A DNA stretch of 64,000 bases from Gemmatimonas sp. (GTDB taxonomy: Bacteria; Gemmatimonadota; Gemmatimonadetes; Gemmatimonadales; Gemmatimonadaceae). Positions 32,953-39,023 of this stretch are shown piece by piece. Position 1 is the stretch's first letter. Each line of letters opens with the position of its first letter. Both the position numbers and the translations under genes were made by a program. Under the pieces are notes generated by a model that saw only the letters and a list, made by a program, of their open reading frames with translations, was not told where the DNA came from and ran no database searches. Location: assembly GCA_965279375.1 (NCBI GenBank), contig OZ257156.1, positions 3,776,001-3,840,000 of the forward strand, written 5' to 3'.

Positions 32953-33621
32953 TTACCCGCCGGCATAGACATAGCGGCAGCCGCGATCCTGCGCCTGCTG
33001 CAATGTCACGATCATCGCCGGCACGACCTCGACACCCGGCAGGAGATTCGCCTTCGCTTCCTCGGCGAATGCTGTCCGCAGTTTCTCATCCGAACGCGCG
33101 GGCTCGGGAAGGAATCTCGAGCCCGACGCCCGCAGCGAGTTCTGGCACACCAACAGAATCACGCCACGCTCCAGCAACTGCGCCACAAGATTGCTCCCGC
33201 CCGGACCATTCGGGTTCGCCGAACCGGTCATGCCCATCGTTTGCGCGATGGGATACTTGGACCACATCGCGTCATTGAACAGCAAACCAATGGATCGCCC
33301 GTTGAGACCGACGATGACACCGCTCTCGGCATCGGTGCGTCCGTACGTGTTCTTTTGCGTCTCGATGAACGTGCGCGCCCACGTCAGCGCGAGCCCGTCC
33401 GTCGGCAGATGCGAATGGAACACCACACGCTGCGTGCCCTTGAGGCGCGTCATCCACGGTTCGTCTGCTGCAGCCGTCCCGCCTTCCTCGGCGAGCGCCT
33501 GCCGTGCGCCGACGGAGCCTCCGACACCCAACGTCGCGCCGATAGCGAGCAAACGCGTCAGGAACGAACGGCGTGCAGGCCCCTGCGCCTCCAGTTGACG
33601 ATCATTCGATGAAGTCGACAT
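32953..33621 (-). CDS. Tat-exported DsrE/F-like protein
   Basis: Twin-arginine signal ARRSFL...ALA; LLERGVILLVCQNSL and LPGVEVVPAMIVTLQQAQDRGCRYVY resemble the DsrE-family C-terminus. Confidence 0.65.
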   Translation of the reverse strand: MSTSSNDRQLEAQGPARRSFLTRLLAIGATLGVGGSVGARQALAEEGGTAAADEPWMTRLKGTQRVVFHSHLPTDGLALTWARTFIETQKNTYGRTDAESGVIVGLNGRSIGLLFNDAMWSKYPIAQTMGMTGSANPNGPGGSNLVAQLLERGVILLVCQNSLRASGSRFLPEPARSDEKLRTAFAEEAKANLLPGVEVVPAMIVTLQQAQDRGCRYVYAGG

Positions 33622-33632
33622 GCTCGATACGC

Positions 33633-34472
33633 TCAGCGTAGGGGAGATGACGGTGCCGCGGACGGTGTGGCGGGCGAGACTCGGCGCGGCAACAGTGGAC
33701 GAGGTGGCGGCAATGCCTTCCCTGCCGCACGTGCACCATCCGTTGCATACGCCACGTCTGCGGGAGGATCACCCTTGGGCCAGTCGCGCTGCTTTCCAGG
33801 ATGATCCTGTCGCGCGTGCCTGAGCACATACGCCGCCACGTCGGCGGCCTGCTGATTGGAGAGCGTGTCCTTGTGGTCGAACGGCATGTTCCAGCGCACG
33901 AAAGTCGCGAACACTGTTTGCCGAGCGAGCCCCGCGCCGATCGAAAATGACTTCGAGCCCCACACGGCGGGCAGCGGACCATTCGAGCCGTTGCTGCCGT
34001 GGCAGCGCGCGCAGCTGGCGAAGTACACCTTGCGACCTTGCGCGACTACTCCGACCAGTCGCACGGTGTCGACTCCCACCGGTCGCACACTGTCTCGCAA
34101 CGACTCGATGTAACTGACCATGTCGCGCATGTCCCGACTGTCCTCGGGCAACATGCGACCAGCGAGACTGCGCGCGACGCACTCGTTCACTCGTTGCGCG
34201 AGCGTTTCCTCCGAACCTTTCCGCGCGCGGTAGCGTGGATAGCGAGTCGCCGTTCCGTGCCAGGACATGGCCGTGGCACGGGTTCCGTCATCCAGATGAC
34301 AACTCGTACAGCGCAGACCGTTGCCGCTCAACTTGGGCAACGAATCACGGAACGCGGAGACGAGTGCCCGTCCACGCGCGGCGTCCCCAGTCTGCGCCTC
34401 CGCGGTACGCACCGCGAAGGACAGAGATATCGCGCCAACACAGAGCGCGCTGAGCAACGCCGCGCGCGCCAT
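33633..34472 (-). CDS. tsdA: Diheme cytochrome c, TsdA-type thiosulfate dehydrogenase/tetrathionate reductase
   Basis: Sec signal (AEA/Q); CTSCH and CARCH; YPRYR, RVNECVARS (active-site Cys), AVWG..SF.IGAGLAR, WNMP, DWPKG.PP.DVAY. Confidence 0.75.
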   Translation of the reverse strand: MARAALLSALCVGAISLSFAVRTAEAQTGDAARGRALVSAFRDSLPKLSGNGLRCTSCHLDDGTRATAMSWHGTATRYPRYRARKGSEETLAQRVNECVARSLAGRMLPEDSRDMRDMVSYIESLRDSVRPVGVDTVRLVGVVAQGRKVYFASCARCHGSNGSNGPLPAVWGSKSFSIGAGLARQTVFATFVRWNMPFDHKDTLSNQQAADVAAYVLRHARQDHPGKQRDWPKGDPPADVAYATDGARAAGKALPPPRPLLPRRVSPATPSAAPSSPLR

Positions 34473-34474
34473 CC

Positions 34475-35248
34475 TCAGCCTGTACCGACCGTGGCCTTGG
34501 GTTCCTGCCGACGTGCAGTCGCGACGATGAAATCACGATTCATCTGCTTGATCACGTCGATGTTGATCTCCTTCGGGCAGGCATCCATGCACTCTCCTGC
34601 GAGCGTGCAATGCCCGAAGCCCTCGAGGTCCATCGTCTCGACCATCGCCAGCGCGCGCTTGTCACGCTCCGGCTGCCCCTGCGGCAGCCGGCCCAGATGC
34701 GCGATCTTGGCGCCGGTGAACAACGACGCCGACGCGTTCGGGCACGCCGCCACGCACGCACCGCAACCGATGCACGCCGCTGCGTCCATCGCCTCGTCGA
34801 GCACGTCCTTGCCGATGAGAATCTCATTCGCGTCGCGCGCACCGCCGGTGTTCACCGACACGTACCCGCCCGCCTGAATGATGCGGTCGAATGCGGACCG
34901 ATCGACGACGAGATCCTTCACGACAGGAAACGCCGACGCACGCCATGGCTCGACGGTAATTGTGTCGCCGTCCTTGAACGCGCGCATGTGCAGCTGACAC
35001 GTCGCCGTGGCCTTCCACGGACCGTGCGCCTGTCCGTTGATCATCATCGCACACGAGCCGCAGATACCCTCGCGGCAGTCGTGCGCAAACGCGACCGGTT
35101 CCTTGCCAGTGACGGTCAACTGCTCGTTGAGCATGTCGATCATCTCGAGGAACGACGAGTCGCTGCTCACGCCCTCGAGCGAATGCGTCTCGAGCGCGCC
35201 CGGTGCCTTGGGCCCTGCCTGACGCCACACCTTCACAGTCAGCTTCAT
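34475..35248 (-). CDS. sdhB: Succinate dehydrogenase/fumarate reductase iron-sulfur subunit
   Basis: [35 protein letters not shown]. Confidence 0.96.
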
Positions 35249-37162: not shown

Positions 37163-37912
37163 TCAGCGACCCTCCCCTGCGGACAGCGCCGCGACGGGTG
37201 CTGGCGTGACAGCGTTCACAGTGGCAGCAGTGGAAGATTCAACCAGCGGCGGCGCTTCCTGAAACACGCCCGCCACTGCGGCGAGCGGGATGATCATGAA
37301 GCCGGCCGCAACGATCACCGCAACGACAACAGCCAACGAGCGTTTGAGCGGCGCCTGCGCCGGGCGCGCTGCGCCCAACGTGCGAACCGCCGCCCAGATA
37401 CCGTGATACAGATGCAGCGCGAGCGCGGCCATGGCGAGCACGTAGAACCCAGCCATCAACGGATTGCGCAGCGCCACGACCACGTTGTTGTACGGATCGA
37501 GGTGCGTGAACTTCGGATGCACGACGCCGAGTGTCAGCTGCAGCAGATGGAAGACGATGAAGACGAGCAGCAACACGCCGCCCCAGCGAATCGTCTTCGC
37601 GGCGAACGTGGTCACCTGCGGACGACGCTCGGCGTAGCCCTCAGGTCGTGCGGCGCGGGAAATCATTGTCAGCTGGTAGGCCGACACGGCATGGAGCACC
37701 ACAGCAGCGACCAGTACCGCGCGGACCGTGTACAGCAACGGCATGCTGGTGCGGAGCAGGAGCGCGTAGTGATGCATCGCATCCTGCCCCTTGAACATGA
37801 GCAGGTTGCCGGACATGTGGCCGATCACGAAGCCGACGCCGATGATGCCCGTGACGGCCATGACGATCTTCTTGCCGATCGTGCTCTGCCAGAAACGCGT
37901 GAGAGCGTACAT
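37163..37912 (-). CDS. sdhC: Succinate dehydrogenase cytochrome b558 membrane anchor (single-subunit, diheme type)
   Basis: [13 protein letters not shown], four heme-ligand-type His (GHM, LHA, FHL, LHLYHG); start ATG 37912 or GTG 37945. Confidence 0.92.
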
Positions 37913-37972
37913 AGGGGGGGTATAAGAAAGAACCGGCGCGGTCACGAGAGTGAGCGCGCCGGTCCGGTCAAA

Positions 37973-38902
37973 TCAGAAGGAGAGCACCGACATTGGCTCG
38001 CGCACTGCCTGCGCGGACTTCTCGAGCGCTGCTCGCTCATCCGCCGTGAGCTCGATTTCCAGTACCTTCTCGAGCCCGTTGCGACCAAGCTTGCACGGCA
38101 CGCCAAGGAAGAGTCCCGACAAGCCGTACTCGCCTTCGAGCCACGCGGCGCAGGGCAGGATGCGCTTGCGATCATGCACGATCGCTTCGACCATCTCCAC
38201 CGCACCGGCCGATGGCGCGTAGTACGCCGAGCCGGTCTTGAGATGCTTCACGATCTCGGCGCCGCCATCACGCGCACGCTGCACGATCGCGTCGAGCTGC
38301 TCACGCGGCATCAGCTGCGTTACCGGAATGCCGCTGACGGTCGTGTAGGAGATCAACGGCACCATCGTGTCGCCGTGTCCGCCGAGCACCATCGCCTGGA
38401 TGTCACGTACCGACACATCGAGCGCTTCGGCGAGGAAGGAGCGGTAGCGCGCCGTATCCAGCACACCCGCCATGCCGATCACGCGTTCGCGCGGGAAGCC
38501 GGTCACCTGCTTGGCGACGTAGCACATCACGTCGAGCGGATTGGACACGACGATGACGATCGCGTTGGGCGACGTGGCGCGCACCTGCTCGGAGACGGCC
38601 TTGACGATGCCGGCATTCGTGTTGAGCAGGTCATCGCGGGTCATGCCCGGCTTGCGGGCGATGCCGGCCGTGATCACCACGATGTCGGAGCCGGCCGTGG
38701 GCTCGTACGAGTTGGTGCCGATGACGCGGGAATCGAACCCTTCGATGGGAGCGGACTCCCACTGGTCGAGTCCCTTGCCCTGCGGAATGCCTTCGACGAC
38801 GTCCACCATGACGACGGTGCGTCCCAAGGACTTTTCCGCGATGCGCTGTGCCGTCGTGGCTCCAACGTTGCCAGCGCCAACGACCGTGATCTTGTTGACC
38901 AT
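37973..38902 (-). CDS. mdh: Malate dehydrogenase (LDH-like)
   Basis: [27 protein letters not shown]. Confidence 0.97.
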
Positions 38903-38994
38903 GTTATGTCGAGTCTCCGAACGCGTGTTCGAGCGACGTGAGTGACGAAGAACCAGCCTGTTCCTGGATGCACGAGAACCGTGTCCAGAATCGC

Positions 38995-39023
38995 AAACTA
39001 GATCGGTGCACGTATGGCAGCAA
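38995..39023 (-). promoter_or_regulatory. Sigma70-type promoter for the mdh-sdhCAB operon
   Basis: Minus strand TTGCTG-17 bp-TAGTTT in the moaA-mdh gap. Confidence 0.55.

Follow-up and report, generated by a model that had tools for sequence, protein, structure and literature searches.

The stretch analysed here, called the window in the following, comprises 64,000 nucleotides of a Gemmatimonas sp. genome (assembly GCA_965279375.1, contig OZ257156.1, positions 3,776,001 to 3,840,000), and the subject of this report is a run of six genes therein encoding malate dehydrogenase (mdh), a succinate dehydrogenase (sdhCAB), a TsdA-type thiosulfate dehydrogenase/tetrathionate reductase (tsdA) and a small, probably exported protein termed X. 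The order mdh-sdhCAB-tsdA-X, with all six genes on the minus strand, had been described in a first-pass annotation and was recovered unchanged, the gaps between successive genes being 27, 1, -1, 2 and 11 nt. Likewise, the sdhB/tsdA junction indeed reads TGA-GG-ATG with a 2-nt gap, and 11 nt lie between tsdA and X. The features central to the analysis are the following, in window coordinates:

37973-38902, minus strand: mdh, malate dehydrogenase (TIGR01763, 476 bits, above cut-off), a backbone gene family-wide
37163-37945, minus strand: sdhC, single membrane anchor of the b558 family (TIGR02046, 173 bits against a cut-off of 96 bits)
35248-37161, minus strand: sdhA, flavoprotein subunit (NF005749 and TIGR01811 above cut-offs)
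34475-35248, minus strand: sdhB, iron-sulfur subunit (NF005746 above cut-off), the last backbone gene before a variable slot
33633-34472, minus strand: tsdA, diheme enzyme of the thiosulfate dehydrogenase/tetrathionate reductase type (PF21342 above cut-off)
32953-33621, minus strand: X, protein with twin-arginine signal and predicted DsrE/DsrF fold, a distant full-length relative of Tsd (NF052225)
34391-34425, minus strand: RNA hairpin of 10+5 bp after sdhB, within tsdA codons 16-28
about 32918-32941, minus strand: weak hairpin after X, a possible transcript end (-19.8 kcal/mol, z -1.68)

The identity of TsdA (279 aa) is well founded, as its sequence matches PF21342 (46.2 bits against 27 bits) and, over residues 26-222, the Allochromatium vinosum TsdA 4wq7 (E 1.6e-32), while about residues 1-26 form a signal peptide as read by eye. 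The key residues are C55/C58/H59, R84, R94, C98, C154/C157/H158, N195 and M196, and all of them except N195, hence including both CxxCH sites, are invariant among 85 aligned sequences. C98, R84, R94, H59, H158 and M196 align with C96, R82, R92, H53, H164 and M209 of the A. vinosum enzyme, so that every catalytic residue tested is kept. Judging from this alignment, C98 would be the distal ligand of heme 1, and R84 and R94 would be the two arginines that bind the substrate. An alternative assignment as SoxA was rejected (TIGR04484, only 41.3 against 110 bits; SoxY not found in the genome). With the known enzymes from A. vinosum (Protein Data Bank (PDB) entries 4WQ7/4V2K) and Campylobacter jejuni, TsdA shares the two CxxCH sites, the catalytic Cys98, Met196 and both Arg84 and Arg94, but differs in the Pro-rich C-terminal tail, in the presence of X as partner, in its position behind sdhB and in having no gene for TsdB or another cytochrome alongside. 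The latter had already been pointed out for a TsdB-type cytochrome, and no gene with a CxxCH site adjoins tsdA; a second tsdA was not found in the genome. At position 195, where Asn replaces Lys208 of A. vinosum and thus resembles the C. jejuni enzyme, Asn is present in 71 of the 85 sequences and Lys in none, whereas position 196 is Met in all 85. In the sections of PMC6879331 considered here, the A. vinosum and C. jejuni enzymes are both described as catalyzing both directions, with the Lys ligand failing to explain the direction. With the residues kept, activity of TsdA with thiosulfate/tetrathionate is very likely, while its direction is not readable from the sequence.

Protein X bears the twin-arginine motif RRSFL, with RRxF being present in 134 of 149 aligned members of its family, and reaches 14.3 against a cut-off of 16.7 in the signal model TIGR01409. 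It has been called DsrE-like, which holds for the predicted fold and the conserved cysteine but not at the level of sequence families, since X has no Pfam match and no DsrE family was found among the 149 members at E 0.01. Searching the PDB with the single sequence of X gave no match, a search of the ESM Atlas returned Gemmatimonadota clusters only, and the 16 loci from a single-protein scan all belong to Gemmatimonadota. The AlphaFold (AF2) model of X (predicted local distance difference test, pLDDT, 89.6) matches 2pd2 (Z 14.7, root-mean-square deviation 1.5, 107 aligned), 1l1s (Z 14.3), 1jx7 (11.7) and 2hy5 (10.2), and the top nine rows of the structure search are all of the DsrE/DsrF fold. 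Within the family, Cys159 is found in 148 of 149 members and Cys215 in 80. Hence, X shares the predicted fold with the DsrE/DsrF/TusD carriers (ST0148, 2pd2; MTH1491, 1l1s; YchN, 1jx7; DsrEFH, 2hy5; and DsrE3A), and its cysteine aligns with those of MTH1491 and ST0148. In contrast to these cytoplasmic proteins, X is predicted to be exported, possesses two insertions of about 30 residues each and belongs to a family in which none of the 149 members matches DsrE in Pfam.

For establishing how closely X and TsdA are associated, 250 other Gemmatimonadota genomes were each searched with both proteins. Both were found in 91 genomes (90 when leaving out G183, which is unpublished), tsdA only in 5, X only in 1 and neither in 153, corresponding to a phi of 0.95; among the matches for tsdA, four are weak, with E between 1e-21 and 1e-27, and could stem from fragments or other cytochromes. 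Restricted to the 165 genomes of the two carrier families, phi is still 0.93, compared with 0.27 and -0.11 for the two controls, soxC and a chromate transporter, respectively. Where tsdA of relatives belongs to the clade found behind sdhB, X is the next gene downstream at 19 of the 21 loci that could be assessed, with three more ending at a contig edge. Of 49 tsdA loci outside the genus, taken from 87 matching genomes with long contigs being favored, 25 have X as the same-strand neighbor of tsdA. Several points weigh against a strict pairing. The phi values are overstated, because kin genomes are not independent, and X may have other roles, given that 24 of the 49 loci show no adjacent X and that two paralogues of X lie far from tsdA in the present genome (G000:C1:1341863-1342603 and about 2272729-2273450), among unrelated genes. 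Taking both sides together, X is probably a functional partner of TsdA. The view of X as a twin-arginine translocation (Tat)-type, DsrE-fold partner of TsdA, put forward in the first-pass annotation, is thus borne out by the motif, the predicted fold and the genomic pairing, although that annotation missed the kinship to the Tsd family described below and the fact that X tracks tsdA much more closely than sdh does.

As many as 7 X matches per genome were obtained elsewhere in the order. At four loci (L075, L082, L083, L140), a tandem pair of X-family genes immediately precedes tsdA, and L044 and L054 contain a tandem tsdA pair with no adjacent X. A second context of tsdA in the order is next to a gene for a soxC-type molybdoenzyme, often together with cytochrome c (L023, L024, L026, L027, L029, L041, L048, L064, L065, L068, L070, L090); eleven of these twelve fall into one supported clade, and three loci feature a pair of sulfur-transporter (PF04143) genes. 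In four of the five genomes having only tsdA, this gene is located beside soxC.

By sequence, X is distantly related to the Tsd family. The model NF052225, annotated as thiosulfate dehydrogenase and taken as the Tsd model from its name and description, is matched at E 0.001 by 138 of the 149 aligned X-family members; X itself, at 43.8 bits, stays far under the cut-off of 300 bits. Comparison of the X family with a true NF052225 member by hhalign resulted in a probability of 99.45 and an E-value of 4.7e-22 over 170 columns at about 25% identity, with the cysteine in register. According to parts of a review (PMC6335251), Tsd (AFE_0042) of Acidithiobacillus ferrooxidans is a cofactor-free thiosulfate dehydrogenase of 25 kDa which reduced neither ubiquinone nor cytochrome c, and passages of PMC2754497 and of the same review place AFE_0042 in the doxDA cluster. 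X and Tsd have in common the twin-arginine signal, the size of about 25 kDa, the full-length profile match and the cysteine motif, as well as a gene for a tetrathionate-forming enzyme next door, which is doxDA in A. ferrooxidans and tsdA here. They differ in the score, X being far under the cut-off, in length, X being about 40 residues shorter, and in the lack of a solute-binding-protein gene alongside X. Of five plasmid records obtained in a search, four, all proteobacterial, were examined, and all four loci encode true NF052225 members (395-418 bits) aligning over full length with the X family, again with the cysteine in register. Genes for DsbA, DsbD, TlpA and thioredoxin were found around plasmid Tsd loci. 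A TsdA-type gene stands beside or near the Tsd gene in three of the four, as a TsdA-containing fusion adjoining Tsd on the Burkholderia and Bosea plasmids and as a TsdA-like gene a few genes on in Bradyrhizobium. The Burkholderia fusion (plasmid NZ_CP028965.1, L144:4588-6636), directly after the true Tsd gene, is a 682-aa multi-cytochrome protein with a terminal TsdA domain, longer than the usual TsdBA fusion.

On this basis, X could itself be a second, heme-free thiosulfate dehydrogenase like the Acidithiobacillus Tsd, working in parallel to TsdA or feeding its hemes. The homology over full length, aligned cysteine included, with true NF052225 members, the matches of most family members to that model and the dehydrogenase activity reported for AFE_0042 in the review cited all speak in favor of this. 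The far lower score of X and the identity of about 25%, in addition to the lack of any cofactor motif seen, argue against it, as does the fact that only 1 of the 92 X-bearing genomes is without tsdA, and, in the parts of PMC6335251 used here, Tsd itself did not reduce ubiquinone or cytochrome c. Hence, this role is considered improbable.

A different function is suggested by DsrE3A of Metallosphaera cuprina, for which the parts of PMC4175335 considered describe Cys-S-thiosulfonates formed with tetrathionate, the cysteines being tetrathionate-specific. By analogy, X might be exported by the Tat system and hold thiosulfate at Cys159 as Cys-S-thiosulfonate, thereby supplying or clearing the substrate of TsdA; this carrier mechanism is put forward tentatively, with somewhat less than even confidence. 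The same chemistry could also serve protection instead of energy conservation, TsdA reducing stray tetrathionate and the cysteine of X scavenging it or freeing TsdA Cys98 of stalled sulfur adducts, so that periplasmic thiols are spared. In line with this would be the tetrathionate-specific cysteines of DsrE3A, the extra-sulfur adducts acquired by Cys96 of A. vinosum TsdA according to portions of PMC6879331, the thiol-disulfide genes surrounding the plasmid-borne Tsd and the failure to find SoxY in the genome. The genome does, however, encode a separate soxC-type sulfite dehydrogenase, and related tsdA genes stand beside soxC, both of which point to oxidative use, making a merely protective pair rather unlikely.

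Regarding the succinate dehydrogenase genes, the first-pass annotation had proposed a dedicated module linking succinate and the menaquinone pool to thiosulfate/tetrathionate redox. Its description of a single-anchor enzyme is corroborated by the SdhC score, above the cut-off of the b558-family model, and from its family SdhC would be expected to carry two hemes. With TIGR02046, TIGR01811 and NF005746 above cut-offs and the order kept across the family, mdh-sdhCAB corresponds to a Bacillus-type operon with a single b558 anchor, differing from it in the tsdA-X genes that follow in the genus Gemmatimonas. The mqnE gene, invoked as evidence for menaquinone, is represented by an mqnE-like gene that straddles the start of the window and scores just under the TIGR03700 cut-off (426.7 against 434.55 bits).

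Synteny was found to be conserved, but only within the genus. The sdhB-tsdA order was examined in 30 further genomes of the genus, in 22 of which tsdA is located at most 1.25 kb after sdhB. In the rest, a MutS-like gene intervenes between sdhB and tsdA in one, tsdA is at a contig edge in another, sdhB adjoins dcd without tsdA in two, tsdA is absent within 1.5 kb in one and three are not assessable. Outside the genus, neither mdh nor sdh genes were detected within 6 kb of tsdA at any of the 49 loci, some of which are shortened by contig ends. Conversely, at 20 sdhB loci taken from 60 family genomes outside the genus with an sdhB match, mdh is invariably upstream of sdhC and mdh-sdhCAB is always followed by dcd or nuoA, with a slot of 0 to 2.8 kb between sdhB and dcd/nuoA whose cargo, for instance a gene for a chromate transporter or for an EAL phosphodiesterase, includes tsdA in none of the 20. 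In a quick, midpoint-rooted tree, the 25 tsdA sequences from this slot form one clade (SH-aLRT 100), the nearest outside sequence being paired with X. Because the slot genes form one clade, the 22 cases of sdhB-tsdA linkage count as one event. Composition was compared by GC content at third codon positions (GC3) alone, as the codon score had been trained on sdh and mdh; values of 0.71 for tsdA and 0.75 for X, compared with 0.80-0.84 for mdh and sdh, would fit a different history or lower expression.

The structure of the transcript was inspected as well. The first-pass annotation saw no hairpin until position 32918, which is contradicted by the 15-bp bulged hairpin at 34391-34425, about 50-84 nt past the sdhB stop on the minus strand (-23.6 kcal/mol; z -3.3 in a chosen 48-nt window, z -0.86 over the full 96 nt) and lacking a U tail. 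The stem at about 32918-32941 does exist but is weak and was not called by the terminator scan. The promoter-like site proposed upstream of mdh could not be upheld, as it fails a consensus scan in which the sole match between 30000 and 42000 is at 31410, with 1.4 expected by chance. A terminator-like 14-nt match at 34447-34460 was discarded (z +1.76). Within 95 nt past the sdhB stop, a perfect stem of at least 10 bp occurs at 19 of 23 loci of the genus and 8 of 20 others, compared with 2% of 251 control windows. At loci with a tight gap (L002, L003, L004, L034, L036), the post-sdhB stem, as judged by eye, also lies in tsdA signal-peptide codons, while at some others it is intergenic and has a U tail; the N-termini of TsdA vary widely between genomes. 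It looks as if the signal peptide had been recruited from, or had overwritten, a terminator region, and the hairpin at 34391-34425 is likely a remnant of, or a stand-in for, the terminator or 3'-end stem of sdhB. These patterns lead us to infer that, as a rule, the sdh transcript stops or decreases after sdhB and that in this lineage the start of tsdA moved up against the sdhB stop, with read-through as the result. Since the hairpin is inside signal-peptide codons and has no U tail, read-through from sdh into tsdA is likely in this genome, and the hairpin might then lower the tsdA-X message relative to that of sdh.

Following the first-pass annotation, the six genes could nevertheless constitute a selected, co-expressed respiratory unit in which, at low oxygen, electrons from succinate pass via menaquinone, a quinol:cytochrome c complex and cytochrome c to TsdA reducing tetrathionate. 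The 2-nt gap and the linkage in 22 relatives would agree with such a unit, as would Asn195/Met196 as in C. jejuni TsdA, the mqnE-like gene and the thermodynamics, which are downhill when the +198 mV of the thiosulfate/tetrathionate couple is compared with the potentials of succinate and menaquinone; furthermore, a pentaheme cytochrome resembling a subunit of alternative complex III was recognized by eye as a candidate. On the other hand, the linkage had one origin and was not found at the 49 and 20 loci outside the genus, terminator-like stems and antisense inserts interrupt it in relatives (among the 22 linked ones, three have a UDG gene antisense between sdhB and tsdA), the unit contains no quinol-oxidizing or cytochrome gene, and any donor would be equally usable through the quinone pool. 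Working reductively, TsdA would depend on a step from quinol to cytochrome that is not part of the unit, and such a route would likewise serve any donor. Therefore, a respiratory unit of this kind is regarded as unlikely. The dedicated succinate-sulfur module is not supported, given one origin, no such link found in the other genera searched although both parts are kept there, a slot with unrelated cargo, a frequent terminator-like hairpin or antisense gene and no quinol-oxidizing partner by tsdA.

The link between sdh and tsdA is thus probably positional and not dedicated. Some observations are at odds with this and with the oxidative role favored below. The sdhB-tsdA link has been kept in 22 relatives, and here the gap is only 2 nt with no separate ribosome-binding site seen, which could reflect selection for co-expression. 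Moreover, the hairpin control windows were drawn from the coding part of sdhB rather than from intergenic DNA; the run of T typical of an intrinsic terminator (at least four in the 8 nt past the stem) is seen at only 9 of the 23 genus loci; at residue 195, TsdA has Asn like the tetrathionate reductase of C. jejuni, even though the parts of PMC6879331 considered deny that the ligand sets the direction; and the Tsd locus of the Methylocella plasmid (L145) has no tsdA within 4 kb.

As to the direction, the potential of the thiosulfate/tetrathionate couple is given as +198 mV in the part of PMC6879331 used here. For the oxidative direction, TsdA (His/Cys heme 1, His/Met heme 2) would hand electrons at about this potential to soluble cytochrome c, from where they could proceed to terminal oxidases or a photosynthetic reaction centre. 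Thiosulfate electrons at +198 mV are unable to reduce menaquinone or fumarate, so that an oxidative direction comes without a link to Sdh. The genome, one contig estimated to be 99.95% complete, holds candidate electron sinks, i.e., a mono-heme cytochrome c encoded elsewhere in the genome, the reaction centre and oxidase subunits recognized by eye. Because pufLMC is present, the strain is likely a phototroph; SoxY and high-potential iron-sulfur protein (HiPIP) were not found in the genome. At the puf locus (L125, G000:C1:3105000-3124999), pufL, pufM and pufC are accompanied, toward puh-like genes, by a candidate cluster encoding a von Willebrand domain protein, a phosphatase and a kinase (by eye). 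The soxC-type sulfite dehydrogenase gene (L118, G000:C1:782434-784187) is above the TIGR04555 cut-off and followed by a cytochrome c gene, with neither tsdA nor soxY there.

Upstream of mdh, the minus-strand run also includes moaA. Between X and dcd, the slot of the present genome (span 29840-32914, minus strand) contains two further genes:

31361-32914, minus strand: gene for a right-handed beta-helix protein (PF13229), the likely start being near 32800
29840-31339, minus strand: gene for a TPR-containing, regulator-like protein

For the beta-helix gene, no paralogue was found in the genome, and none of the relatives' loci inspected showed it; several relatives have dcd directly after X. Consequently, these two genes were not counted as members of the unit.

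Taken together, the reading we favor, with confidence a little above even, is that tsdA and X would form a two-gene module for the periplasmic oxidation of thiosulfate to tetrathionate, the electrons going to the cytochrome c pool and X acting as Cys159 thiosulfonate carrier. The module would have entered the slot behind mdh-sdhCAB once, in the ancestry of the genus, and would here be read through from the sdh transcript, its position being a retained insertion, with no electron route dedicated to succinate. Taken by itself, oxidation as the main direction is somewhat better favored than this combined reading. A broader conjecture, to which we give rather low credence, is that the Tsd family including X represents a periplasmic, SoxY-like Cys-thiosulfonate shuttle on the DsrE fold, not a stand-alone dehydrogenase, serving both of the unrelated enzymes TsdA and DoxDA across phyla. 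The pair of TsdA and its carrier would then, in Gemmatimonas, have been wired to the transcript of the tricarboxylic acid cycle and respiration, the sdhB terminator being overwritten by the tsdA signal peptide, so that thiosulfate might top up respiration or photosynthesis when sdh is on.

In the literature, at the level of titles and the openings of abstracts, no description of the sdh-tsdA arrangement or of a TsdA-Tsd pairing was found. TsdA and Sdh are well known. TsdA and X, two small soluble proteins with near-perfect co-occurrence and one invariant cysteine, make both the mechanism of the cofactor-free Tsd family and the existence of a sulfur-handling partner for TsdA directly testable in a culturable genus, with X orthologues occurring under the names Gemmatimonas aurantiaca and G. 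groenlandica. The sdh link, for its part, gives reason for caution, since one insertion behind a strong operon can yield both a 2-nt gap and genus-wide synteny. The main value of the finding is in the TsdA-X pairing and not in the sdh link; with 95 of the 165 genomes of both families carrying tsdA, use of thiosulfate would seem to be widespread among Gemmatimonadales.

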